Shown: positions 24,705 to 53,658, counted from the first letter of the stretch. The stretch is 64,000 nucleotides of DNA from Candidatus Falkowbacteria bacterium RIFOXYA2_FULL_38_12 (GCA_001778095.1 MFGA01000020.1:75805-139804), one strand, 5' to 3'. Made by a program: numbers and translations. Notes: generated by a model not told the origin, from the sequence alone.

Positions 24705-25112
24705 ATGATTTTTATAATAAACACAGCGACACAAGGCGCAACATCCGTCGCCCTAATAAAGGGCGATTCTTTTTATAAAAAAACAGTCGCCGGAAAAGAG
24801 TCCGGTAAAATATTAGTTTTACTTGATAATTTGTTAAAAAAAGTGAAAGCAAAAAAAGAAGATCTCACGGGGGTGGTAGTCGTGAGTGGGCCGGGACCGT
24901 TTACTTCGGTAAGGCAGGGAGTTGTTGTCGCTAATGCTTTGGCGCGACTTCTTAATATTCCAATCATTGGTGTGCGAGCGGAAGAATTTAATTTAGATAA
25001 AAAATCAGTCGCGGATTATGAGGCCAAGCTGAAGAAAGTTAAAGCGGGAAAAATCGTTTTGCCTTTTTATGACAGAGAACCAAATATTACAAAGCCGAAG
25101 GTGAGTATCTAG
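24705..25112 (+). CDS. tsaB: TsaB/YeaZ-like protein (short)
   Basis: MIFIINTATQGATSVAL...GPGPFTSVRQGVVVANALARLLNIPIIGV matches the N-terminal half of TsaB. Only 135 aa. Confidence 0.5.
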   Translation: MIFIINTATQGATSVALIKGDSFYKKTVAGKESGKILVLLDNLLKKVKAKKEDLTGVVVVSGPGPFTSVRQGVVVANALARLLNIPIIGVRAEEFNLDKKSVADYEAKLKKVKAGKIVLPFYDREPNITKPKVSI

Positions 25113-25143
25113 TATCTAGTATTCAGTATTTAGTATAAAAAAG

Positions 25144-25152
25144 TTATCCACA
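25144..25152 (+). promoter_or_regulatory. perfect DnaA box TTATCCACA
   Basis: Exact 9-mer consensus. Two further perfect copies in inverse orientation lie within 370 bp. Confidence 0.5.
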
Positions 25153-25162
25153 TATCAAGATT

Positions 25163-25190
25163 CGCCATATAAAAAATGGCGTTTTTTGTT
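25163..25190 (+). terminator. rho-independent terminator after tsaB-like gene
   Basis: CGCCAT-ataaaaa-ATGGCG followed by TTTTTTG. Confidence 0.7.
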
Positions 25191-25394
25191 TGTTAAAAGT
25201 AAGTAAAGGGTGCCCGCCACGCACAAGGCAAAGGTCTTTTTTAGGCTAATTATAATGAAAAATTTTTAAGACAGTTGCTTTGCGATGGTGTTTGGTCAAT
25301 ATAAGCCTTGTATGTGGTTGACCCCGTATGAAGTTTAGGTAATTCAAGGCATTTGCAGAGTAGTAATTTTAGATAATGATAGTTTACTGAGCAT

Positions 25395-25510
25395 TGTGGA
25401 TAACCTTTACTTCATACGGGGTTGACTGGGTATTTAAAGTGGTATAAAATGGAAGTATAAGAATTAAAAGTGGATAAAAGTGGGGATAGATAAGAAAATC
25501 TGTGGATAAC
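25395..25510 (+). promoter_or_regulatory. cluster of DnaA boxes (TGTGGATAA x2 perfect, AGTGGATAA) interleaved with MraZ-type AAAGTGG direct repeats, upstream of mraZ
   Basis: Perfect TGTGGATAA at 25395-25403 and 25501-25509. AAAGTGG at 25436, 25467 and 25477, the last two spaced 10 bp apart. AT-rich surroundings. Directly upstream of the mraZ ATG at 25541. Confidence 0.55.
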
Positions 25511-25540
25511 TAATAATAAGAGATTATTAGAATTTTCTTT

Positions 25541-25972
25541 ATGTTTATTGGCGAATACAAGCATACAATTGATGAAAAGGGGAGACTGGCCGTGCCGGTC
25601 AAGTTTCGAGCTCAATTATCCGGAGGCGCGGTAGTGACGAGAGGCCTGGATAATTGTCTTTTTTTATATACAGAAGAAGAATGGAAGAATTTAGCCGAGA
25701 GATTGGCAAAATTACCAATTGGCAAAGCTAATTCCAGAGCTTTTGCGAGATTGATGCTCGCCGGAGCAATGGATGTTTCCTTAGATAAACAGGGAAGAAT
25801 TATTTTGCCTGATTATTTAAGAAAATATGCGGCAGTGGGAAAAAATGTTGTTGTCGCCGGTCTTTATAATCGTTTGGAAATTTGGGATGAAGCAAAATGG
25901 GAAGAATATAAAAACGGAACAGAAAGTTCAAGTGGAGATATAGCCGAGCAATTGGGGGAGCTTGGCGTATAA
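25541..25972 (+). CDS. mraZ: transcriptional regulator MraZ
   Basis: Two SpoVT/AbrB-like halves. N-terminal MFIGEYKHTIDEKGRLAVP is typical of MraZ. Confidence 0.9.
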   Translation: MFIGEYKHTIDEKGRLAVPVKFRAQLSGGAVVTRGLDNCLFLYTEEEWKNLAERLAKLPIGKANSRAFARLMLAGAMDVSLDKQGRIILPDYLRKYAAVGKNVVVAGLYNRLEIWDEAKWEEYKNGTESSSGDIAEQLGELGV

Positions 25973-26007
25973 AGAAGTTAAAAGTGAAAAATGAAAAGTT
26001 AAAAGTT
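25972..26007. repeat. AAAGTGAAAA/GTTAAAAGT element (single arm)
   Basis: aaagaagttaaaagtgaaaaatgaaaagttaaaagtt, immediately 5' of the rsmH ATG. Confidence 0.6.
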
Positions 26008-26994
26008 ATGGTTGAGGAATCAAAATATAAAGGACATATTCCTGTTCTGCTCGATGAAGTTATAGAAAATTTTGATCCAAAGCCAAACCAAAATTTTGTT
26101 GATTGCACTTTAGGTGGCGGGGGACACAGCGCGGCGATTCTTAAATTGACGGGTCCGTCCGGAAAGGTGTTAGGGATAGATTTGGACGAACAAGCTATTA
26201 AAGCCGCGGAGTTAAAAGTTTCTTCCTTCGCCAAGGCTACGAAGGACAAGAAAAATGAAAAGTTGGAAGTTGGCCGATTGATTGCGGTAAAAGGAAATTT
26301 CAGAGATTTAAAAAACATTGTTCATCAAAATAATTTTGAGAATATTTCCGGAATTTTACTGGATTTGGGGTTTTCTTCAATGGAAATGGATGATTCAGAA
26401 AAGGGTCTTTCATTTAGATATGACGCGCCACTGGATATGCGTTTTGGGGAAGAGGGGATAACAGCAGAAGAAGTTATTAATAATTTTAAAGAAAAAGAGT
26501 TGGAAGATATTTTTAGGACTTATGGAGAGGAAAGATTTTCCGGAAGAATTGCCAGAATTATCTGCGAGGTGAGGAAGGAAAAGCCTATCCGAACAACATT
26601 TGAACTAGTTGAGGCGATAAGAAAAGTAATTCCCGGTAAGTTCCAGTACGGGCGAATTCACTTCGCGACAAAAGTTTTTCAGGCTTTGCGTATCTTTGTA
26701 AATCAAGAATTAGATAATTTGAAAATCGTCTTGCCTCAAGCGATCGATTTATTGTTGCCGGGAGGACGACTTGCGGTGATTTCCTTTCATTCTTTGGAAG
26801 ATAGGATTGTTAAAGAATTTTTTAAGCGAGAATCACGAGACTGTATTTGTCCGAAAGAGATGCCGATTTGTCAGTGTGACCACAAAGCAAAATTAAAAAT
26901 ATTAAATAAGAAACCAATAATTCCAAAAGAGGGGGAGGCAAAAATAAATCCCAGGTCACGAAGCGCAAAGCTCCGAGTAGCGGTTAAGTTGTGA
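26008..26994 (+). CDS. rsmH: 16S rRNA (cytosine1402-N4)-methyltransferase RsmH (MraW)
   Basis: HIPVLLDEV...DCTLGGGGHS SAM-binding start and the conserved RsmH core. The earlier ATG at 25984 lies inside the repeat element and was rejected. Confidence 0.9.
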   Translation: MVEESKYKGHIPVLLDEVIENFDPKPNQNFVDCTLGGGGHSAAILKLTGPSGKVLGIDLDEQAIKAAELKVSSFAKATKDKKNEKLEVGRLIAVKGNFRDLKNIVHQNNFENISGILLDLGFSSMEMDDSEKGLSFRYDAPLDMRFGEEGITAEEVINNFKEKELEDIFRTYGEERFSGRIARIICEVRKEKPIRTTFELVEAIRKVIPGKFQYGRIHFATKVFQALRIFVNQELDNLKIVLPQAIDLLLPGGRLAVISFHSLEDRIVKEFFKRESRDCICPKEMPICQCDHKAKLKILNKKPIIPKEGEAKINPRSRSAKLRVAVKL

Positions 26995-27153: not shown

Positions 27154-27513
27154 ATGGAAAAATCATTGTTTTTAGCCCAAAAGAGAGGGCACCAGAAAAC
27201 AAACAAAAACATCAGCGCCAAACGAAAATTTTTTCTTAATGTTAAAGTTTTTAACATTTTTATTGTTATTGCCATTTGTTGTGGAGGAGTCTTATATCTC
27301 GCCAATATCAACAACACGGCAACCAAAGGGTTTAAAACCAAAGAATTAGAAGAAAAACAGGCATTTCTAAAAGAGAGCATAAAAAGAGCGGAGTTTCAAA
27401 CAGCTGATTTGCAATCAGTGCAGAAGATAAAAGAAAGAGTGAATTCTTTAAACATGGTCGCTGTCACTCGCACGGAATACGCAGGAACGGCGAGTACGGT
27501 CGCAGTGAAGTAA
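27154..27513 (+). CDS. FtsL-like / septum-formation-initiator-like small membrane protein
   Basis: 119 aa with a single TM helix followed by a coiled-coil-prone region. Sits in the mraZ-rsmH-ftsL position of a dcw cluster. Confidence 0.4.
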   Translation: MEKSLFLAQKRGHQKTNKNISAKRKFFLNVKVFNIFIVIAICCGGVLYLANINNTATKGFKTKELEEKQAFLKESIKRAEFQTADLQSVQKIKERVNSLNMVAVTRTEYAGTASTVAVK

Positions 27514-35092: not shown

Positions 35093-35533
35093 ATGGAAAA
35101 ATTTTATTCAATTGTTTTTGGCGTCATTTTAGTGACAGCAGTAGTCATGAAAGTCGGCCAATATTCCAATGAGCATGGCAGGGTTATTGTCGGTGAAGAT
35201 AAGATAAAGGTTGAAATTGTCAGTCAATTGACATCAAGGCAGAAAATGTTGGATTGGCAGGAAGATATGGACAAAGACAATGGGCTTCTCTTTGTTTTGG
35301 ATAAGCCGTCCGAGACTACAGCTTGGTTAAACGAGCTACGATTGCCGGCTGATATCATTTGGCTCCAGAATGGGCAAATAATTGATCTTGCCCCAAATCT
35401 ACCGGCAATTGGTAGTGATTTGCTTGATGGCTACAAAACCCCAAAACCGGCCACTCATATTTTAGAAATCGGTTCCGGTTTTGTGGATAAGTACGACCTA
35501 AAAATCGGGGATAGGCTGGAGATTGAGATATAG
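35093..35533 (+). CDS. DUF192 (COG1430) family protein
   Basis: N-terminal TM helix. GLLFVLDKP...AWLNELRLPADIIWL...ATHILEI...IGDRLEI fits the DUF192 pattern. Confidence 0.5.
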   Translation: MEKFYSIVFGVILVTAVVMKVGQYSNEHGRVIVGEDKIKVEIVSQLTSRQKMLDWQEDMDKDNGLLFVLDKPSETTAWLNELRLPADIIWLQNGQIIDLAPNLPAIGSDLLDGYKTPKPATHILEIGSGFVDKYDLKIGDRLEIEI

Positions 35534-36948: not shown

Positions 36949-38313
36949 TTATTGCCCAATATTCTCAAAATTTGTCTCTAAGTTCTTAAACGACGCTCTA
37001 TTTTCATCAAAAAACAGGGGAACAACACCGGTCGGACCGTTTCTGTGCTTGGCGATATGAATCTCGGCAAGATTTTTTTCTTCAGGAGAAAGATCTCTAA
37101 AATTACGGTCAGCCGCTTTGCGGTAGATAAACATAACAATATCGGCATCCTGCTCAATACTTCCCGATTCGCGCAAATCAGCTAATCTCGGTATGGCGGG
37201 GGAGCGAGCTTCAACCGCGCGATTAAGCTGGGAAAGGACAAGAACGGGAATGTTCAGTTCTCTGGCAATTCCCTTTAAAGATCGAGATATTTCGGATATT
37301 TCTTGGACGCGGTTATCGCTCTTTGTCCGGGATTCCATCAATTGCAAGTAATCTATGACAAGCAAGCCCAAGCCTTGTTCCATCTGGAGTCGTCTCGCTT
37401 TTGTTCTTATTTCCATAATGTTTGAAGTGGCGGAATCGTCTATAAAAATAGGGGCTTCTGACAATACACCCATAGCGTGACCGATGCGAGGAAAGTCGTC
37501 GTCTTCATCACGATCGGAGAGTTTTCCCGTTCTCATTTTCCATAAATCAACTCCTGATTCGGCGCAAAGAAGGCGGTCAACCAATTGTTCTTTGGACATT
37601 TCCAAACTGAAAATTCCAACCGGAGTTTTGCTTCTTATGGCAGCATTTCTCGCTATATCAAGGGCTAAAGAAGTTTTACCAACAGACGGTCTGGCTGCCA
37701 AAATCACTAAATCAGATTTCTGGAGACCGGAAAGAAAATTATCTAATCCGGCAAAGCCAGTTGGAATTCCTCTTAATCTTCCCTTATCGCGATGTAAGAG
37801 ATCAATTCTGTCAAAAGCCTCAGAAAGAATATTTTTGATGGGAATAAAAATCTGCCTTAAGTATTTTTGCGAGACAGAAAAAAGTTTTTGTTCGGCCTTA
37901 TCCAGAATATTTTCCGTTTCTTCTTCTTCATTATAGGCAAAACCGGTTATTTCCCCGGCGGCTTGAAGCAAACGACGCAAAGTAGCCTTTTTCTGAACAA
38001 TATTGGCGTAGTGGACAACATGAGAGGCGGTAGGGACGCTGTTTGTGAGTCCCATCAAATAACTTCTTCCTCCGACCATTTCCAATTTTTTTCTTTCTTC
38101 AAGTTTTGAAGACAAGCTTAAAATATCAATTGGCTCGTGCTTAGCAAAGAGATCAATCATGGCCGCGTAGATTTCGCCGTGGCTGTCTTTGTAAAAATCT
38201 TCCGCACGGACAAGATCGGCAATCCTAATCATGGCATCCTTATCAATCATAAGAGAGCCCAAAAGGGATTGCTCGGCCTCAATATTTTGCGGAGTTATTT
38301 TTTTGTTGGACAT
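36949..38313 (-). CDS. dnaB: replicative DNA helicase DnaB
   Basis: Walker A GKTSLALD in a RecA-like C-terminal domain. N-terminal DnaB domain. 454 aa. Confidence 0.9.
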   Translation of the reverse strand: MSNKKITPQNIEAEQSLLGSLMIDKDAMIRIADLVRAEDFYKDSHGEIYAAMIDLFAKHEPIDILSLSSKLEERKKLEMVGGRSYLMGLTNSVPTASHVVHYANIVQKKATLRRLLQAAGEITGFAYNEEEETENILDKAEQKLFSVSQKYLRQIFIPIKNILSEAFDRIDLLHRDKGRLRGIPTGFAGLDNFLSGLQKSDLVILAARPSVGKTSLALDIARNAAIRSKTPVGIFSLEMSKEQLVDRLLCAESGVDLWKMRTGKLSDRDEDDDFPRIGHAMGVLSEAPIFIDDSATSNIMEIRTKARRLQMEQGLGLLVIDYLQLMESRTKSDNRVQEISEISRSLKGIARELNIPVLVLSQLNRAVEARSPAIPRLADLRESGSIEQDADIVMFIYRKAADRNFRDLSPEEKNLAEIHIAKHRNGPTGVVPLFFDENRASFKNLETNFENIGQ

Positions 38314-44079: not shown

Positions 44080-47000
44080 TTGATGCTAAGCAAAAAGACA
44101 GCTCTAAAATTTACACTATCCCTCATCGTACTTATGGGAAGTCTTTTGTTTGTCCAAACGGTTTTTGCGCAAGATTTTGGGACTGATGTTGTCGGCGAAA
44201 ATATTGCTCTAGTGGATGCCGGTGATCCCAGAGTTGTCGCCGCAAGGATTATCAGAATAGCTTTGGGATTTTTGGGAATTATTGCTGTTTGCATAGTTTT
44301 GTATGGAGGCTTTTTATGGATGACTTCAGCCGGCAACGAAGAGACTCTTGGTAAGGCAAAAAAGGTTTTAACCAGCGGTTTGATCGGACTTATCATTATT
44401 TTAATGGCTTTTGGTATTACTCAATTTGTTTTGAGTAGATTGACAGAGGCAACAGGGGTTGATGGCGGAGGGGGTGGCGGAGGCGGCGGAGGGGGTGGCG
44501 GAGGCTTGCCTTCTGACGCTTTTTTAGTAAGAAGCATTCAGCCAAATGGCGCTATTCCCATTCGTAATGTCATTGTCAGAGTTCTTTTTAATAAAAACGT
44601 AAATGCAGATAGTCTAAGAGTGGCGGGAAATTTTGTAGTGCGTCGGGTTTCCGACAACACGCCAGTAGAAGGAATAATAAATCTAAATGGTAATCTTGCG
44701 GAATTTGTTCCCAATGCCGATTGTCCCGAACCAAATGCTGATAGAAAATGTTTTGATAGTGATACTGAATTTAGAGTGGAATTAGCTACTGGGATAAGAA
44801 GCGAGACTGGAAAGAGTTTGATGTGTGGAGGATTGGCTCCGTCTTGTCGTGGAACTTTCACAACTGGAAATTTGGTTGATGTTACCGGCCCCGAGGTTGA
44901 TGTTACTTTTCCTGATGATGGTCAGCCGGTGAGTGCCGACGCGATTATAAGTATTGAAGCGCATGCGATTGACGATGCGGGAATTTCTTATTTGGATTAT
45001 TTTGTTAATAACAACCTTTTGGGTCGGGACGCTCCGGAGGGGCCGACTGTTCGAGATTATTTTTCGGCTACCGATTGGGATACAACCGGAATAGCCTCGG
45101 GGACAAAATATAAATTAAAGGCCACAGCTTTTGATATTGATTCAAACAATACAAACTCAAACGGCGTAGGGGTGATTGTTAGAGCTGCGCATTGTTTTAA
45201 TGCGTTTAAAGATCTTGATGAGATCCAAGTTGATTGTGGCGGAGTTGATTGCGGTTTATGTGACGGCGGAGCTTGTGTTAATGATGATGAGTGTCGTAGT
45301 GGAATTTGTTTAAACGGAATTTGTCGGAGCTTGCCGGTTATCGCTAGGGTTGCTCCCAGCGATGGCGCAGTAGGAAATTTTATAACAATATTTGGCGAGC
45401 ATTTTGGCAATGTTCACGGTTCGGTTTATTTTCAGGATCACATCGAAGGCAATTTGCCGAGAGGTTGTGTAGTTGGAGACGTTTGGCAGGATAGACAAAT
45501 TATCGTTGAGGTCCCGGCAGGAGCATTGGACGGGCCGATTTCCGTTGTTATTCCTCCACCGGACGGAGCGCTAGCTTCAGACTATACGGACAGGACGAAT
45601 GATGAACGAGGTCCGTTGTTGCCTGATTTTGACGTGAATGAAATTGAACGTCCGGGAATTTGCGCAATTAATCCGAAAGAAGGAGAACCAAAAGCTGAAG
45701 TGAGGGTTTTGGGAACTCATTTTGGTGACCAGCAGGGAGACAGTTTGATTAATTTTGGAGGGACAAGAGCCGAAAGAATTTTGGATTGGGGAGAATCAAG
45801 TATTAGGGCAACAGTTCCCTTGATAGCCCCGGCGGTTGTTCCCGTTCAAGTAGTAAAAGATGAAGAAAATAGCAATCCTATTAATTTTACCGTTCTTCAA
45901 TCTGCCGCGACTCCAAAAATTTTAAGTTTCTCTCCGACAAAAGGGCCGGAAGGGGAATATATAACCATTTTAGGTTCAAGTTTCGGCGACACTCCCGGTA
46001 AAGTTGATTTTGTTGCGCCGGACGGAACAATTTATTTGGCGGCAACTGATTTTCCGGAGGTCTGCGGAGCTAATTGGTGGAAAGATGACGCAGTGATTAT
46101 TAAAATACCGAAAGAAGCAAGGATTATTCTTCCCGGGCCAAAATATACTTTAAAATTAACGGCAAATAGCGGCCTTGTTGATGATACTTCGGATTTAACA
46201 CCGGCAACTCTCGAAATTATTGGCGGGGCGCCAAAACCGGGAATTTGTCGTATTTTTCCGGACAACGGACCGGCTGGTCTTGAGGTTGCAATTGATGGGG
46301 AAAGATTGGGGTTGAGAGGAATTTTAAATTTTTGGAGAAATAAGGTTGCTCTAACAAATTCGTGGAAAGTGGATCAGGTTGTTGGAGTCGTGCCAGTCGG
46401 ATCAGAAACCGGGCCAATCAATGTTTCGGTCGGCGATAATTTAAGCAATAATGTAAATTTTAACGTTCGCGATTGTCGCGACGCGAGAACGCCATGCGGA
46501 GAAGGAGAAGAATGTTGTCGGGATGGATCATGTCGAGCGGATGGAGAATGCGCGGAAGCGCCGGGTAGCGGACATTATTTTTGGCGTTTTTCCACCGGTG
46601 AGCTACCAATAAATCCCAGAGTGGTGGAATATTGCGGTCCGGCTGATGAACCAAGAAGATTAAACCCGTCACCTTCACCTTGGAATAAAAGAGAAGGTGG
46701 AAACAATGTTTGCATTAATGCCAGGATCACGGCCAGATTTAATGTAAAAATGAACAATGAATCATTGACAACACATGGGAATATTGTTGTGGAAGAATGT
46801 GCCGGTCCTGACGCGGAAAATCCTTGTCTTGAAAAAAGAGTAGTTGAGGGAGAAATTAATCCTTTAGTTGTAAATGATGCTCTTTTACCAAGAGGAATTG
46901 GATCAGATTCATTTGAGTTTGTTTTGCCAGCGGGCATTCTATTTGAACAAAATAAAGTTTATCAAGTTACTTTAAAAGGTGGTTCATTTGAAGATCCCGG

Positions 47001-50000
47001 ACTTGCAAGTGTTGCCGGGTTGCTTTTAGACGGAGATAAAGACGGAGAAGAGGGTGGAGATTATATTTTTGAATTTAAAACAAGGAATACTGATGAGTTG
47101 TGCGAAATAGGTTCAATCGGAATCATGCCTCCAATCGCAACACTGACTGAACAATGGATAGAAGATGAAGAAATTGTCGGATCAGAATTGGAGTATACCG
47201 GTTTGTGCTATGCAGAGGGGGATATATGTTTAACTCTAAATTGTAGAAACTATGATTGGAGATGGAAATCATCTGACGATCCGTTAAATCCAAAGGTTTC
47301 ATTGCTGGAAGTGGAAGATGATGAAGGCGAAGTGATTGAAGAGAAGGCACTTGTCAGGGCAGTAGCGGAGACAGATATAAACCCCGCGACTGGTCTAAGT
47401 CAACCAGTAATAATAACTGGCGCGATCCCAGTTGAAAGAAAGTCTGGAGAGGGAGATTTAACTATTAGTTTTACAGATCCAAAAGTAATTGAAAAATGGC
47501 CTGATTGTCGAGAGGCCTGCAAGAATTCGGAAGTAGGCGTTAAATTTAATACATGGATGGATGAAGAAATTGCCGGCGATCCTCAAAATATAAAGTTATA
47601 TATCTGGCGTTGCGGTAATAGTGTTATTGATCATGGCGAAGATTGTGATGACGGAAATATTGTTTCCGGCGATGGTTGCAGTAGTAGTTGTCTAAATGAG
47701 GGAACAAAACTTTGTCTCGAATTTGATCCGGCCGTCAGAGAAGTATCGGTCGAGGATTCTTGTTGCGGAAATGGACGGCGCGATCCGGGCGAAGATTGCG
47801 ATGGTAATCCTTTTCCGGCGAATTGCCGAGTAGATGGATTGGCTGACAATTGTCTTAATGAAGGAACGGCTGTGATCGGCGACGGTGGAAGTTGTGGTAA
47901 TAGTATAGTTGAAGAAGGTGAAGATTGCGATCCGCCGGATCTTGCTTTGCCACCGGGAAGTCGTGGGTGTAGCGTGGAATGTTTGAATCAAGGGACTTCC
48001 GGACTATTTCCGGCGCCCGGAGGTATTGTCGGAGTTTTACCTCGATATTCTTCAGTAAGCCTAAGCGAAGGGAAATGGGAACACAAACTGAATTTTGATT
48101 TTCCTGTCGGTTTTTCTCTTCTTCCTAATACTTGGTATAGGGCGGTAGTTTCGGGAGCTCAAAAAAGCGTTAGCGGAGTTGCTCTCACGGAATTGAATTA
48201 TGACGATATACCTGACGAAAGACATTCTTTAGATTCATATTCTTGGGCGTTTAGAACCAAAAGCGATGATTCTTTATGCGCTGTTGATAAAATTGAAGTG
48301 AGCCCGAGGGAAGCGCGGGTTAGATTTATTGGAGCAAAAGTTGATTTTAGGTCAATGCCTTTTGGCGCGCCGGATGAATGTAGCCCTAATGGCCAGAAAT
48401 TGAGAGCGATGAGCTATCCTTGGGTTTGGAATTCAACAGTAGAGGAAGTGGGAACTCTTCCGGCTCCTCGTTCCGATAGATTCCCCGGTTGTGGCAATGG
48501 TGTTGTGGAATTTGGTGAAGATTGCGACGATGGAAATATACTTCCGGGTGATGGTTGCGCCGGGCCGGGAGATAACGCCTGCTTAAATGAGGGTGAGAGC
48601 GCGTGCGCCTTTGGAGAAGGTATGTGTATAGTAGATAAACGTTGTATTTGGAATGAAGCTGATGGAGGAAGATGTATTAAAAAAACTATCTGCGGAAATA
48701 GAGCAGTAGAGATAGGCGAAGATTGCGATGATGGAGATAGAGATTCGGGAGACGGATGCAATAATAAATGTTTGAATGAGGGGTCAGTCGCCGGAGGATC
48801 TGTCTGTGGAGATATGAAGATTGGTATTGGTGAAGACTGCGATGACGGAAATACTCGATCGGGAGATGGATGCAGTAATCTTTGTTTGAATGAAGGGACT
48901 ATTCTTGACAGAAGAATTGATCCTCTGCAAACAGTAACGGCAAAGGGGCTAAGAGTTGATCATGCTCGCGAGGACACTACGGCAATAAGCGCTGAAACAG
49001 ATGGAAAAAAAGGTGAGGGCAATTTTACTTTAGCTTGCAGTTATAATCTACCGGACAATCCTTGCCCGGAAGACGACGAAAGGGGTGATATTTATGGAAT
49101 TGGTAATAATTCTTGCTGTTATCCAAAGCCAATTATTGAAACCTGTAATCCGTCAGGCGCGGCTATTTGTTCCAATAAACCGGAAGGGGAAGCGGTTTGT
49201 CGCAATTCTTTAATCTCAATAACTTTTGATAAAGAAATGGATCCGGCCTCACTGGAAGAAAATATTATTGTCGCTGGCAATTATAATGTTTGCCCGGAAG
49301 GAACGATTGACGTTGGTAATGGCGATATCAGACTTCGTGAATTTATAAATTGGTGCGCGGTAACGGGAGGAATTACCGTTAGTCAAATTGTTCCGGAAGA
49401 AGGCGAAAAAAAGACAAGAGTTGATTTTAATTTATCCAAACTTTTGGATCCGAGCATAAAATATAAAGTTATTGTTCGCGGGAATAATTTATTGACTCGA
49501 GATAGAGTAGAGGGAGCAAGGAGTATTAACGGAGTGGAGCTGGGAGAGACTAATTTTACTTTTAGAGAAGGGGAGGCGAGTTATCAAAGCAGGAGCTGGA
49601 CTTTTTGGACAAACGATCAAATTTGCGCCCTGTCTTCAGTTAAAATAAATCCCGAAAGTCATCTTTTTACCAGCAGTTTGGATCCGGAAAATCGGGCTGA
49701 TTTTATAGCAACCGCCTTGGATGCAAGAAATAATCCTATTTCGTCAATTCCCGGATCTTATTCTTGGAGATGGGATTGGACTTCAAGTTATATTGACATA
49801 GCCGCTCTTTCTCTTTGCGCTGATCCAAACGGATGTAGCACAAGAACCGTGACGGCGCAAAATCAAAACGGAGAATCATTAATTTCCGCCAAAGCGACGA
49901 TAACAGCAGATGAAGAAGTCCCGGGCGCAAGAGGTCAAAGCAAGTTTGGCATTTCCAATGTCGCTGTTTTTCTTTGCGAAAATCCTTGGCCAACAGCGGC

Positions 50001-53000
50001 AACAATAAGAGAGGACGGAGGATATCTTGATCGTAATTATAATTTCAAATTTTACTATTGCCGAGACAAAGGGGAATTTTTGCCTGACGATGATCTACCC
50101 TGTTTTCCCTCGGCGGAAGTGGGCGGAGCGATTGCCGTAAGGGATACCGAGAGAATCGGCGTATTAAGAGAAGATGGTTTGTTGAGAGAATATTTATTTA
50201 CGTTTCCGGGAACATTTTATTGTAGTGTTTCACAAACTTTATGCGATCCTGCCGCCCTTCCTGACGCTCTGGGTTTCTGTCCTGCCGGAACCGGAGATTG
50301 CCGACCGGCCCCGGATGCCATTGGTATTAGAATTTACGAAAACGTTAATCATCTAACTCCGACCGAATGGTATGGAAAGCAAGGATTAGCTGTGGGAAGT
50401 CCGGAGACAATTAATATTGACGGCTATGAAGCAATACGAGATGGTCGGACAGTCTATATTTCGGCGGCCAATGACACGATGGGTCCGGACACTCTTTATA
50501 CAAATATTTATTTGGTCTCTTATAACGACGGAGCTAATTCGGATACAATAAATATCTATAATCAGATAATACAAAATTTAAAATTTAATACTAATTTGAG
50601 AAATGCGGATCTGCGGGCATGTCTTTACAGGGCTTGCAGTAATAATGCCAGCAAAAGTTGCAATATGGATGCAGACTGTCGCGCGGAGCCTGACGTTACT
50701 TCAACTTGTTTGCCTTTATCTTATTGCACTAAAGATATGGATTGTCCGCCGGCGGTTCCGGTTGCGGGAACAATTAACGAATGTCAAGCGCCAAAAGATA
50801 AATTAACCAGAGACATGAGGAGGATTATTGACCTTAATAATCTAAAAAGAGTAATAGATTCTTATAAAACTGTTCATGGAAGCTATCCAAAACTGGAAGC
50901 GGGAACTTATATCAGATCATTGGTCTCCAGCGTTTGGGGTTCTTGGATCGGGGCGTTGGGCAAAGACTTAGGCGCATCATTACCCGTTGATCCGATCAAC
51001 AAAATTGTTAATTGCGAGGGGGCGGGTTTTGATAAGGAAACATGTTGGAATCTAGAATCAAAAACGTATCAATGTCCGGCCGGTTCGCATGTTTATCAAT
51101 ATAAAGTGAACGGAGACGGGACATATAAATTAAAGAGTGATTTTGAGTATAGGGCAAACGATCGCCTCGTTGATCTAAAAACGCTATGGGTAGGAAATTT
51201 ATCTAATGTGTTTGAAATACAAGGATCTTGCGATGGCGCTCCCATAAGAAGCACCGGCGTTTGCGGAGATGGAAATATAGACGGTCCCGAGGAATGCGAG
51301 CCGAGAGCTAATCCCCCGCGAGACAGGGCGTGTACACTTGAGATTGATGGAGAAGAAGTGGCTGGCAGACAAAGAGAAGAGTGTAACCCAGCTGACTGCA
51401 CTTGGCGCGAGCTAGGTGGCTGTTCGGTTCTCTGTGGGGATGGCATTCGCCAAGTGGGTGAAGAATGTGACGAAGGGCCTCTGGGCGGACGAATAGCTGG
51501 TGGAGGAATGTCTCCGGAAAATCAGTATTTTTGTACTAGAGAATGTGAAATGATGGGAGGTTATTGTGGTGATGGAGGAGAACCACAGGTAGCTTATGGA
51601 GAAAGATGCGATAATGGAGTTTCTTGCACGTTAAGGTTGCCTTGTGCAAGTGTGGATGGATGTGTCTGTGGATCTTGTATAGTTCCTAGGGGAAAGAAAA
51701 GCTGTGGAAATGGATCTTACGGATTGAGCGTTAGTGGAGAACCTTGGTGCAAAACAGATTGTTCGGGCTTCGGTCCATATTGCGGAGATGAGGTTGTAAA
51801 TGGAGCTGAACAATGTGATGGAGATTCTATTACTTCAAAAGGAATTTGTGTTCCAGAAGGAATACCAGAACTAAACGATGTGGATACGGTTCTTGGAAGT
51901 TATACCTCATGTAACAACAATGAAGATTGTTCGGACGGTACTTGTGTTATTTGTGATAATTCTAGAGAAGGTTATTCTCAATCAAGAACGAAAAACTGTG
52001 GAGAGTTGGGGGTACCAGGGTTAGCTCTTCTATGTGACTGGAATAGATGGGGCGCTTGCGAGACGGCAGGTACTTGCGGAAATGGGACAAAAGAAGGGGA
52101 CGAGGAATGTGATGATGGAAATGAAAATAATAATGATGGTTGTATTATCACCTTGGAAAATTCTCCATCGGGTCCTGATAATTGCAAACTAGCTCGTTGT
52201 GGAGATGGATTTACTAAGATTGGTGCAGAAGCCTGTGACGTCGGCGTAGGCAATGGCAGGATTTGCAGGGCAAACTATGGTGAAAATTGTAATTATTGCG
52301 ATGTTAATTGCGCTATAAAAGTTATTACCGGACCTCGTTGCGGAGATGGAATAATAAATGGAAGAGAGACATGCGATGATCGAGCGGGAACTAGTTTGTT
52401 ATATAAAATAATTGAGGAACAAAAATATTTTGCTGATAATCGTGGCGATAGTTTAGGAGTAGTTGTTCCCGTGAGTATGGATTCGGCCTGCTCAATAGAC
52501 AGCGCTCTTCCGGGCATAGATGGTTCCTGCCCGGGGCAACCGCCAACAGGAGCACTGAAATTTAATCGGGCGGTTTGTTCAGCGGATTGCGCTTCAACTT
52601 GTCCCCCGGCTTATAAAATACAAACATTAACCTTTGGTCCGGAAGGACGAAGTTCAATTGAATTAGGAAGTAACGAGGAGGTCTCAGTTAATCTTCCCGC
52701 TTGTCGTGTTTTGGGTGACATTAAAGTTGATGTTGATTTGAGTAATGTTACTCAAACTCCGTTGAATGTGGTTTTTGTGACGGATAGATCGGGGAGTATG
52801 GGGTGGGGAACAACATCAAGTTCTGGACCAAATCTTTCTTGCAGTGAAGACAGAACGAGGATGGGTTGTGCTAGAGATGCGCTTACGGAAGCAATAAATT
52901 TATTATTTGATAGTTATGAAAATATTCGCATTGGCTTGGTAAGTTATGGTAATAATGTCCCGGTTGGTGCATGGCATGACTTGCTGGGTTTTTTAGGGAA

Positions 53001-53658
53001 AGACATATTAATTTCCGCAGTTGGTTCCTATACTCCGACTTTAGGTGCTACTAACATTTCCGCTGGGGTAAAGAAGGCAAAAGATATATTAAACAATGAA
53101 GATGGTAAAAAAATAATTGTTTTAATGAGTGATGGAGAAGCGACGAGACCTCATGAAACCCCAGCGCTAAGAGCAGTTTATCCTGCTTGTGATAGATATA
53201 GTAGAGACGATTTTGCCGCATGCGTTGCAGGAGAAGAGGTTAGATTGGCTAAAGGTAGAGATATAGAAATTTACACAATTTTATTTTATGGTCCCACATC
53301 CGCAGAAGCTAATATGGAGAGTTGGGCAAGTTCTCCCACGGAGCCTTACGCTAACATAAGCGCTCCCGATAATGACTTGGATGAAATTTATCGTTCTATT
53401 ATAGCCTCTCTAACATCCTCAAGTATAAATTTAAATTTACAAGAAACCGGAGGTGTGCGAGGGGGTGCAGAGATACCTCTTTTAAGAAGTATCTTTTGTA
53501 AGGAAGAAGAACAAACAGATATTCCCTTTAGTATAGATTTTGGCGGGATAGGCAAGGCGCGTGTAAGTAATCTAAAAGCTTATATATGCCCTGGCCCGCC
53601 GTATCCACCCGAAGATCTTTGGGAATGTGTCGGAGACTCTTGCGATGTGAGTCTATAG
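44080..53658 (+). CDS. giant (3192 aa) cell-surface protein: pilin-like N-terminal anchor, poly-Gly linker, IPT/TIG and Ig-like domains, ~12 cysteine-rich (GEDCDDGN...GDGC) repeats, embedded pseudopilin-like segment, C-terminal vWA domain
   Basis: N-terminal 125 aa ~85-90% identical to the 42070 protein. Four IPT-like modules (ITIFGEHFG, VRVLGTHFG, ITILGSSFG, VAIDGERLG). Repeats CGN..GEDCDDGN...GDGC..C of the Myxococcus-type cysteine-rich repeat. vWA MIDAS VVFVTDRSGSM and IIVLMSDGEAT. Confidence 0.7.
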   Translation: MMLSKKTALKFTLSLIVLMGSLLFVQTVFAQDFGTDVVGENIALVDAGDPRVVAARIIRIALGFLGIIAVCIVLYGGFLWMTSAGNEETLGKAKKVLTSGLIGLIIILMAFGITQFVLSRLTEATGVDGGGGGGGGGGGGGGLPSDAFLVRSIQPNGAIPIRNVIVRVLFNKNVNADSLRVAGNFVVRRVSDNTPVEGIINLNGNLAEFVPNADCPEPNADRKCFDSDTEFRVELATGIRSETGKSLMCGGLAPSCRGTFTTGNLVDVTGPEVDVTFPDDGQPVSADAIISIEAHAIDDAGISYLDYFVNNNLLGRDAPEGPTVRDYFSATDWDTTGIASGTKYKLKATAFDIDSNNTNSNGVGVIVRAAHCFNAFKDLDEIQVDCGGVDCGLCDGGACVNDDECRSGICLNGICRSLPVIARVAPSDGAVGNFITIFGEHFGNVHGSVYFQDHIEGNLPRGCVVGDVWQDRQIIVEVPAGALDGPISVVIPPPDGALASDYTDRTNDERGPLLPDFDVNEIERPGICAINPKEGEPKAEVRVLGTHFGDQQGDSLINFGGTRAERILDWGESSIRATVPLIAPAVVPVQVVKDEENSNPINFTVLQSAATPKILSFSPTKGPEGEYITILGSSFGDTPGKVDFVAPDGTIYLAATDFPEVCGANWWKDDAVIIKIPKEARIILPGPKYTLKLTANSGLVDDTSDLTPATLEIIGGAPKPGICRIFPDNGPAGLEVAIDGERLGLRGILNFWRNKVALTNSWKVDQVVGVVPVGSETGPINVSVGDNLSNNVNFNVRDCRDARTPCGEGEECCRDGSCRADGECAEAPGSGHYFWRFSTGELPINPRVVEYCGPADEPRRLNPSPSPWNKREGGNNVCINARITARFNVKMNNESLTTHGNIVVEECAGPDAENPCLEKRVVEGEINPLVVNDALLPRGIGSDSFEFVLPAGILFEQNKVYQVTLKGGSFEDPGLASVAGLLLDGDKDGEEGGDYIFEFKTRNTDELCEIGSIGIMPPIATLTEQWIEDEEIVGSELEYTGLCYAEGDICLTLNCRNYDWRWKSSDDPLNPKVSLLEVEDDEGEVIEEKALVRAVAETDINPATGLSQPVIITGAIPVERKSGEGDLTISFTDPKVIEKWPDCREACKNSEVGVKFNTWMDEEIAGDPQNIKLYIWRCGNSVIDHGEDCDDGNIVSGDGCSSSCLNEGTKLCLEFDPAVREVSVEDSCCGNGRRDPGEDCDGNPFPANCRVDGLADNCLNEGTAVIGDGGSCGNSIVEEGEDCDPPDLALPPGSRGCSVECLNQGTSGLFPAPGGIVGVLPRYSSVSLSEGKWEHKLNFDFPVGFSLLPNTWYRAVVSGAQKSVSGVALTELNYDDIPDERHSLDSYSWAFRTKSDDSLCAVDKIEVSPREARVRFIGAKVDFRSMPFGAPDECSPNGQKLRAMSYPWVWNSTVEEVGTLPAPRSDRFPGCGNGVVEFGEDCDDGNILPGDGCAGPGDNACLNEGESACAFGEGMCIVDKRCIWNEADGGRCIKKTICGNRAVEIGEDCDDGDRDSGDGCNNKCLNEGSVAGGSVCGDMKIGIGEDCDDGNTRSGDGCSNLCLNEGTILDRRIDPLQTVTAKGLRVDHAREDTTAISAETDGKKGEGNFTLACSYNLPDNPCPEDDERGDIYGIGNNSCCYPKPIIETCNPSGAAICSNKPEGEAVCRNSLISITFDKEMDPASLEENIIVAGNYNVCPEGTIDVGNGDIRLREFINWCAVTGGITVSQIVPEEGEKKTRVDFNLSKLLDPSIKYKVIVRGNNLLTRDRVEGARSINGVELGETNFTFREGEASYQSRSWTFWTNDQICALSSVKINPESHLFTSSLDPENRADFIATALDARNNPISSIPGSYSWRWDWTSSYIDIAALSLCADPNGCSTRTVTAQNQNGESLISAKATITADEEVPGARGQSKFGISNVAVFLCENPWPTAATIREDGGYLDRNYNFKFYYCRDKGEFLPDDDLPCFPSAEVGGAIAVRDTERIGVLREDGLLREYLFTFPGTFYCSVSQTLCDPAALPDALGFCPAGTGDCRPAPDAIGIRIYENVNHLTPTEWYGKQGLAVGSPETINIDGYEAIRDGRTVYISAANDTMGPDTLYTNIYLVSYNDGANSDTINIYNQIIQNLKFNTNLRNADLRACLYRACSNNASKSCNMDADCRAEPDVTSTCLPLSYCTKDMDCPPAVPVAGTINECQAPKDKLTRDMRRIIDLNNLKRVIDSYKTVHGSYPKLEAGTYIRSLVSSVWGSWIGALGKDLGASLPVDPINKIVNCEGAGFDKETCWNLESKTYQCPAGSHVYQYKVNGDGTYKLKSDFEYRANDRLVDLKTLWVGNLSNVFEIQGSCDGAPIRSTGVCGDGNIDGPEECEPRANPPRDRACTLEIDGEEVAGRQREECNPADCTWRELGGCSVLCGDGIRQVGEECDEGPLGGRIAGGGMSPENQYFCTRECEMMGGYCGDGGEPQVAYGERCDNGVSCTLRLPCASVDGCVCGSCIVPRGKKSCGNGSYGLSVSGEPWCKTDCSGFGPYCGDEVVNGAEQCDGDSITSKGICVPEGIPELNDVDTVLGSYTSCNNNEDCSDGTCVICDNSREGYSQSRTKNCGELGVPGLALLCDWNRWGACETAGTCGNGTKEGDEECDDGNENNNDGCIITLENSPSGPDNCKLARCGDGFTKIGAEACDVGVGNGRICRANYGENCNYCDVNCAIKVITGPRCGDGIINGRETCDDRAGTSLLYKIIEEQKYFADNRGDSLGVVVPVSMDSACSIDSALPGIDGSCPGQPPTGALKFNRAVCSADCASTCPPAYKIQTLTFGPEGRSSIELGSNEEVSVNLPACRVLGDIKVDVDLSNVTQTPLNVVFVTDRSGSMGWGTTSSSGPNLSCSEDRTRMGCARDALTEAINLLFDSYENIRIGLVSYGNNVPVGAWHDLLGFLGKDILISAVGSYTPTLGATNISAGVKKAKDILNNEDGKKIIVLMSDGEATRPHETPALRAVYPACDRYSRDDFAACVAGEEVRLAKGRDIEIYTILFYGPTSAEANMESWASSPTEPYANISAPDNDLDEIYRSIIASLTSSSINLNLQETGGVRGGAEIPLLRSIFCKEEEQTDIPFSIDFGGIGKARVSNLKAYICPGPPYPPEDLWECVGDSCDVSL
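44464..44505 (+). repeat. perfect 21-bp tandem duplication encoding a poly-Gly linker
   Basis: ggcggagggggtggcggaggc x2, inside the giant gene (15-residue Gly run). Confidence 0.8.

Follow-up and report, generated by a model that had tools for sequence, protein, structure and literature searches.

Between a short tsaB-like gene (24705-25112) and mraZ (25541-25972) lies a 428-bp gap that is probably a dual MraZ/DnaA control region of an mraZ-rsmH-ftsL-like operon, with functional DnaA sites on its promoter; we estimate the probability of this reading at about two in three. Within the window (i.e., the whole stretch of 64,000 nucleotides that was analyzed), this gap holds three perfect DnaA boxes together with a predicted promoter that is overlaid by phased MraZ boxes. 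We infer from the boxes themselves that DnaA is the protein that would be bound there. As a whole, the layout looks like a replication-to-division control switch. The gap and its surroundings contain the following features:

24705-25112: tsaB-like gene (PF00814 and TIGR03725)
25104-25136: heptamer repeat AGTATCT, 4.7 copies (TRF), spanning the tsaB-like stop codon
25144-25152, + strand: distal DnaA-type box TTATCCACA, a perfect 9-mer with the extended form AGTTATCCACAT
25163-25190, + strand: intrinsic terminator of the tsaB-like gene, CGCCAT...ATGGCG followed by a T run (stem at 25163-25181)
25318-25426: hairpin element of about 100-105 nt, with arms ACCCCGTATGAAGTTTAGG and CCTTTACTTCATACGGGGT, enclosing the second (middle) DnaA box
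25395-25403, - strand: middle (promoter-proximal upstream) DnaA-type box, a perfect TTATCCACA that reads TGTGGATAA on the + strand
25422-25450, + strand: predicted sigma-70-type promoter, TTGACT-17-TAAAAT, 10/12 matches, the best in the gap
25436-25452, + strand: upstream MraZ box pair, AAAGTGG at 25436 and AAAATGG at 25446, 10 bp apart and overlapping the -10
25467-25486, + strand: core MraZ operator AAAGTGGATAAAAGTGGGGA, two boxes 10 bp apart, including a near-match to the DnaA box at 25469
25501-25509, - strand: downstream DnaA-type box, a perfect TTATCCACA that reads cTGTGGATAACt on the + strand
25541-25972, + strand: mraZ (Pfam, E=1e-39; TIGR00242, 149.8 bits, above cut-off)
25984-26994, + strand: rsmH (mraW; PF01795, E=1e-110)
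27154-27513, + strand: FtsL-like ORF of 119 aa, with one transmembrane segment and a coiled coil
36949-38313, - strand: dnaB

The initial annotation had reported three perfect DnaA boxes in the gap, in numbers far above chance, and both claims were confirmed. The boxes at 25144 (+), 25395 (-) and 25501 (-) are perfect 9-mer matches to the DnaA-box consensus (TTATCCACA / TTATNCACA) and all three match out to the 10-mer TGTGGATAAC. Dinucleotide-preserving shuffles predict 0.38 copies of TTATCCACA per 64 kb; the window holds four, a number that was reached in 0 of 100 shuffles, and the Poisson probability of finding at least three perfect boxes in the 428-bp gap is about 3e-9. The distal box is located past the tsaB-like stop codon and before the tsaB-like terminator. 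The middle box ends 18 bp 5' of the -35 element, and the downstream box lies 32 bp past the first core MraZ repeat, counted from its GTGG. Relative to the predicted start, the downstream box covers about +44 to +52, and its end is 31 nt away from the mraZ ATG. The three boxes are spaced by 251 and 106 bp (mean 178 bp). The sole copy of TTATCCACA outside the gap (35482-35490, - strand; TGTGGATAAG on the + strand) falls within a DUF192 gene, at its 3' end and 138 bp ahead of rplU (L21), and a single box of this kind per window can arise by chance.

Two other elements had been read differently in the initial annotation. The near-match at 25469 does have the sequence AGTGGATAA, but it is the first core MraZ repeat AAAGTGGATAA and not an independent DnaA box. 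The tandem repeat described as a (TAGTAT)n run at 25107-25135 is present, but its real unit is the 7-bp AGTATCT, repeated 4.7 times at 25104-25136. This heptamer repeat is partly kept in the closest relative (L176) and absent from loci L001-L008. We rejected it as a candidate for DnaA-trios beside the distal box, since its period is 7 bp and not 3 bp.

The AAAGTGG direct repeats with 10-bp phasing that had been noted at 25467 and 25477 were recovered, along with a further copy at 25436, and a 10-bp repeat was reported by TRF at 25465-25483. These repeats agree with the published MraZ box consensus, AAAGTG[T/G] or GTG(G/T)-N6 (PMC8475190, PMC12957436). The GTGG/ATGG units are located at 25439, 25449, 25470 and 25480 and form two pairs separated by two turns. 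An MraZ operator is defined by three or more direct GTG(G/T) repeats that precede mraZ and recur about every 10 bp, and the gap presents such repeats. Transcription is predicted to start near 25457, and the MraZ boxes cover the -10 and the beginning of the transcript, where an autorepressor would be expected to bind. Given this arrangement, MraZ would most likely repress its own operon through the phased boxes.

The identification of mraZ 3' of the gap was confirmed by both Pfam and TIGR00242. Its product carries both DXXXR motifs (DEKGR at 11-15 and DKQGR at 82-86) and keeps K13, R15 and R86, which together characterize a cognate MraZ. The ORF at 27154-27513, which lies downstream of rsmH, is probably the third gene of the operon. 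Its assignment to FtsL is weak and rests on position and topology: a Pfam search of this ORF returned no match, and its score against the NCBIfam model FtsL_Actino is below threshold (E=1.6e-4; 21.5 bits for a cut-off of 55). The next gene is tgt, and pbpB is absent from this position. On the other side of the gap, the tsaB-like product corresponds to the N-terminal ~135 aa only of a TsaB/YeaZ-type protein. Its match to TIGR03725 spans positions 2-93 of the 212-position model, and this short form is kept in relatives. The gene dnaB, which had been placed about 11 kb downstream, was indeed found at 36949-38313 on the minus strand. The window also contains a very large ORF of 3192 aa (44080-53658, + strand).

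The initial annotation had proposed that the same intergenic region be compared in related genomes. The comparison covered 80 loci, obtained from a scan of a genome collection with the MraZ protein (70-89% MraZ identity), and the architecture was found to be conserved. These loci all belong to uncultured Patescibacteria and are species-level relatives labeled as Falkow-, Buchanan-, Magasanik-, Uhr- and Kuenenbacteria, among others. An identical MraZ together with an identical gap was found in at least 24 metagenomic contigs, which indicates that the window represents a real and widespread population. Ten metagenomic contigs with identical MraZ were compared for polymorphism in the gap, but their gaps were identical and the comparison was uninformative.

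DnaA boxes are strongly concentrated upstream of mraZ in these loci. We counted 64 perfect copies of TTATCCACA in the 47 kb upstream of mraZ (600 bp per locus) against 28 in the remaining 1162 kb. The density of perfect copies is 2.16 per kb upstream of mraZ, relative to 0.22 per kb in other intergenic sequences and 0.019 per kb in coding sequences. Of the 80 loci, 58 have at least one exact TTATNCACA in the 500 bp that precede mraZ, compared with 2.1% of control windows (random 500-bp windows drawn from the same loci), and 19 have at least two (0.09% of controls). When loci are tallied by their exact TTATNCACA boxes, 39 have one, 10 have two, nine have three and 22 have none.

The layout of the region was determined from k-mer enrichment and from an alignment anchored on the most enriched 20-mer. 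The conserved order is GTGGTTGAC (-35), AAAGTGGTGTAAAATGG (-10 region), AAAGTGGATAAAAGTGGGGATAAGTC and cTGTGnATAACt. The promoter elements of the clade are TTGAC at the -35 and TAAAAT/TATAAT at the -10, with the in-phase MraZ boxes AAAGTGGATAAAAGTGGGGA. The stretch AAAGTGGTGTAAAATGG, which contains the -10 region and the upstream MraZ pair, is kept across the clade. The core MraZ 20-mer is exact in 23 of the 80 loci and found with at most three mismatches in 48, and its two repeats are GTGG or ATGG in nearly all cases (first repeat, 67/68 loci; second repeat, 65/68 loci). The first core repeat, read as AAAGTGGATAA, is conserved in 32 loci.

In the 47 well-anchored loci, the GTGG in the first core MraZ repeat served as the zero point for distances. 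The -35 is found at -48/-47 in 40 of these loci and the -10 at -25/-24 in 43. When one mismatch is allowed, 33 of the 47 loci show TGTGNATAA between +31 and +33, and 28 show it exactly at +32, relative to 0.33% of control positions. Upstream of the -35, an exact TTATNCACA is found in 28 of the 47 loci; the density of these upstream boxes is 3.0 per kb against a background of 0.051 per kb, and they group at about -63 to -79, at -108 to -110 and at -145. An upstream box, a +32 box or both are present in 41 of the 47 loci, with both in 20. The boxes of the window fall into this scheme. The box at 25501 is the conserved +32 box, and the box at 25395 falls in the zone from -63 to -79, where 12 relatives present an exact TTATNCACA. 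The distal box at 25144 corresponds to GTTATCCACA, located just past the tsaB stop in close relatives (L001, L002 and L005-L008), whose tsaB terminator is found at the same place as that of the window.

The sequences of the boxes are also informative. The +32 boxes of the 33 loci never depart from GTG, A, A and A; position 5 varies (G in 24, C in seven and T in two) and T6 is replaced by C in three. Read as sequence, this substitution pattern is the DnaA-box degeneracy (TTATNCACA / TTGTCCACA), including the free position 5 expected of a DnaA box. The upstream boxes read TTAT[C/G/A]CACA. Upstream and downstream boxes share an extended motif, AGTTATnCACAG being the reverse complement of CTGTGnATAACT. 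These DnaA-type boxes do not carry the AAA prefix of the MraZ repeats and present a conserved flank of their own, (c/t)T...C-T. Beyond the boxes' own flanks, the immediately surrounding sequence varies.

The closest relative is a metagenomic locus (L176) whose mraZ is about 90% identical to that of the window. The two sequences are near-identical from TGTGGATAACC (box 2) to the ATG, a stretch that includes the promoter together with its MraZ boxes and +32 box, and they cannot be aligned directly upstream of box 2. That near-identity begins at box 2 suggests that the two boxes flanking the promoter behave as constrained sequence. The distal box has been lost in L176 by a 4-bp deletion, which suggests that this box is dispensable.

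The middle box is located in the right arm of the hairpin, an element that other relatives lack at this site. The hairpin contains a 26-nt inverted repeat (25321-25346 with 25397-25422) and has a minimum free energy of -43.4 kcal/mol. It is flanked by direct copies of GTTGAC, i.e., a duplicated -35, with an orphan second GTGGTTGAC at 25314-25322. Relative to loci L001-L008, the window possesses additional DNA between the terminator and the promoter, the hairpin included. At the same position of the element, the L001 copy reads CATTGGTCAAAACC and the window reads CATTGTGGATAACC. It is conceivable, as a speculation, that the promoter-proximal box was re-created after an insertion displaced older boxes.

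Further copies of the hairpin were found in L001 (2244-2344), L008 (9846-9948), L111, L131/L153, L133, L169, L170, L192, L198, L203 and L207. They present the conserved termini CCCCrTnnGAAGT ... CCTTTACTTCnnACGGGG with compensatory changes between copies, and some have the common interior GCCCGGCGGAGCAAyGG. In the window, the hairpin interrupts the -35 region of mraZ. In L001, L008 and L111, it follows codon 8 of mraZ, and a re-created 5' end of the gene lies downstream of it; L198 carries two copies in tandem. A search of the gap against Rfam, with E up to 10, returned nothing credible (the best result was a miRNA-shaped match with E=0.08), and the hairpin matched no Rfam family. The hairpin may represent a MITE-like element or, alternatively, a small structured RNA.

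Several other observations were made in the related loci. In L001-L008, the hairpin of the tsaB terminator (AATCCACTTATGCACAGGAGTGGATTTTTT) bears a DnaA-type box in its loop, which reads TTATGCACA or TTATACACA and precedes the first core MraZ repeat by about 110 bp; the window's own tsaB terminator has no box in its loop. The leaders of L001-L008 between the operator and mraZ are 150-400 nt long and contain conserved blocks such as AATTGGCCAAGACATTTCTCGCCAATTCC and TTCCACTTTTGTTTCTTTC. They could correspond to a leader RNA or to a small ORF, and the leaders of L001 and L008 had no match in Rfam at the gathering threshold. Finally, the 17-kb contig JBAYNP010000006.1 (L018/L019) carries mraZ and three DnaA boxes twice, in inverted orientation, which reflects a large inverted duplication or, alternatively, an artefact of assembly.

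Of the two options raised in the initial annotation, an MraZ operator combined with DnaA-dependent control is favored by the comparative evidence: the repeats fit the MraZ consensus and the boxes occupy conserved positions on both sides of the promoter. In its details, this option has to be amended, in that 25469 does not count as a DnaA box and 25395 lies in a hairpin that relatives lack. Under this reading, MraZ would autorepress at the promoter (25422-25450), which its in-phase boxes overlay. Two boxes of high-affinity type, at 25395 (about -55) and 25501 (about +45), bracket this promoter-operator, with the third box, 25144, lying 250 bp further upstream. DnaA bound at the bracketing boxes would tune the transcription of the mraZ-rsmH-ftsL-like operon in response to the level of DnaA or its nucleotide state. 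The most likely mode would be repression, through occlusion or a roadblock, by analogy with yllB(mraZ)-ftsL of B. subtilis, and activation would be possible. The expression of an unstable division protein would then track the replication-initiation state.

This reading assumes that the DnaA of the clade recognizes TTATCCACA, on the basis that DnaA domain IV is generally conserved; exceptions to conserved DnaA-box recognition exist in other phyla. DnaA and DnaN are both present in Patescibacteria, with their genes in the usual rpmH-rnpA neighborhood (PMC12102498). The related loci (about 1.2 Mb) hold 26 perfect boxes away from the upstream regions of mraZ, several being located in the leader of rplJ (L10). 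We saw no typical DnaA-regulon promoter among them, and these data hence give no independent sign of such a use of the motif. Perfect copies of TGTGGATAA/TTATCCACA were found near rplJ (L10) in L022 (1408), L033 (1041) and L078 (913), about 110-120 bp upstream of the gene or at its start, and these are probably within the L10 leader region.

We also considered, more tentatively, that the MraZ operator and the DnaA boxes might constitute one interdigitated, helically phased composite operator. The core MraZ repeats AGTGGATAA and TGGGGATAA are both one-mismatch DnaA boxes. The +32 DnaA box would then sit at the position of a fourth MraZ box, and DnaA and MraZ would compete or cooperate on the same face of the DNA. 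If such a composite operator were real, it would be a two-input switch tying division-gene expression to replication-initiation potential in ultra-small bacteria, for which few checkpoints are known to us.

Among the alternatives to dual control by MraZ and DnaA, the one that survives best, although we consider it unlikely, is that the TGTGGATAAC boxes belong to MraZ as well, whose site in this clade would be GTGG with ATAA behind it. The gap would then be one extended operator and the match to DnaA boxes coincidental. The two types of sites are indeed similar: the core repeat AAAGTGGATAA is one base away from a DnaA box, and GGATAA is not confined to the putative DnaA boxes, since ATAA trails the core MraZ repeats too. 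However, the absence of the AAA prefix and the different conserved flank set the boxes apart from MraZ repeats. The +32 box shares the helical phase of the MraZ boxes (0, +10, about +21, +32) and keeps GTG, but its fourth base is C in seven of the 33 loci, whereas published MraZ boxes read GTG(G/T). Similarly, the 106 bp from 25396 to 25502 amount to about 10 helical turns, in phase with the other GTGG boxes, and the MraZ of M. genitalium uses four boxes and tolerates longer spacers (PMC12957436); the distal boxes of the clade, however, are found past the terminator, 110-145 bp from the array. Finally, MraZ boxes are direct repeats, yet the upstream boxes are mostly inverted relative to the array (28 of 36; 28 '+' against 8 '-'), an orientation that is unexplained by an oligomer binding direct repeats.

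It appears improbable that the cluster is mainly a site of DnaA titration or state modulation, such as datA, DARS or the clusters of B. subtilis, with a secondary effect on mraZ. Stable DnaA-binding intergenic clusters are known away from oriC in B. subtilis (PMC2533591) and three perfect boxes do occur within 370 bp in the window, but most relatives have only one to three boxes. Moreover, these are fixed relative to the promoter elements and not merely clustered. DnaA-box clusters have been defined as at least three boxes with a mean spacing below 100 bp (PMC7561715). The perfect boxes, 251 and 106 bp apart, fall outside this definition, and the region enters it only when the MraZ repeat at 25469 is counted (25395, 25469, 25501).

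The remaining option of the initial annotation, that the perfect boxes and AT-rich stretches mark a replication origin or a secondary origin-like element away from dnaA, was rejected on GC skew, gene orientation and the failure to find dnaA, and is almost certainly wrong. The skew inflection sought at the site was not found in the window, where GC skew stays between +0.1 and +0.3 throughout with a monotonic cumulative curve. Of 51 testable loci, 49 keep the same sign of skew in the 8 kb to the left and to the right of mraZ, the two exceptions being the contig with the inverted duplication (L018/L019). The genes on both sides of the gap are co-directional. The two or three boxes are few and widely spaced, sit inside a conserved promoter/operator and are accompanied by no DnaA-trio or recognizable unwinding element. 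A tblastn search with E. coli DnaA (a query validated against Pfam) turned up no dnaA in the window or in the adjoining 10 kb on its left. It was equally negative for the sequence up to 10 kb from mraZ in the 80 loci and for all of the 209 loci searched. The region has no bearing on where the origin sits.

Patescibacteria (CPR) are mostly uncultured, and to our knowledge next to nothing is known of the regulation of their cell cycle. The layout of DnaA boxes and MraZ boxes, conserved across many genera, points to a transcriptional link from replication to division as in B. subtilis. If so, this link would be older or wider than one model organism. The compact fragment of about 150 bp would offer a handle on the interplay of DnaA and MraZ in vitro.

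The closest known system is the mra operon of B. subtilis (yllB/mraZ-ylxA/rsmH-ftsL-pbpB). DnaA is reported to bind the promoter region of yllB-ftsL and to exert negative control on replication arrest (PMC2533591 citing Goranov et al. 2005; PMC11019786; bioRxiv 10.1101/2022.02.09.479790), and this promoter also carries MraZ repeats. Both operons start with mraZ and rsmH, followed by ftsL in B. subtilis and by the putative FtsL-like gene in the window, and both have GTGG-type repeats at the promoter. DnaA boxes at the mra promoter, the feature that defines the B. subtilis type, are present in the window and in its relatives. In Patescibacteria, a different phylum, the DnaA-type boxes of this clade are perfect consensus sequences at fixed positions on both sides of the promoter and are kept across many genera; the window presents tgt and not pbpB as the next gene, and DnaA binding is a prediction here.

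The MraZ operators of Mollicutes, E. coli and Firmicutes also consist of direct AAAGTG[T/G] / GTG(G/T) repeats, one every 10 bp, which lie at the mraZ promoter or overlap it, and their MraZ proteins share the two DXXXR motifs, K13, R15 and R86 (PMC8475190, PMC12957436). Those operators have three or four contiguous boxes, whereas the window has two pairs, interleaved with DnaA-type boxes. The region upstream of E. coli mraZ contains no exact TTATNCACA, which indicates that the feature is not universal. At promoters under DnaA control or autoregulation (dnaA, sda and nrd, as well as gcrA/ftsZ of Caulobacter), consensus boxes near or downstream of the promoter act as transcription-factor sites (PMC2533591). 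The predicted sites of Patescibacteria differ from these in their target gene and in their fixed pairing with the operator of a second repressor. With oriC, the gap shares the same 9-mer box, but it presents no skew switch, has no dnaA or dnaN nearby and lies inside the control region of a transcription unit. We would class the region with this known type of DnaA- and MraZ-controlled promoter, here in another phylum about which little is known.
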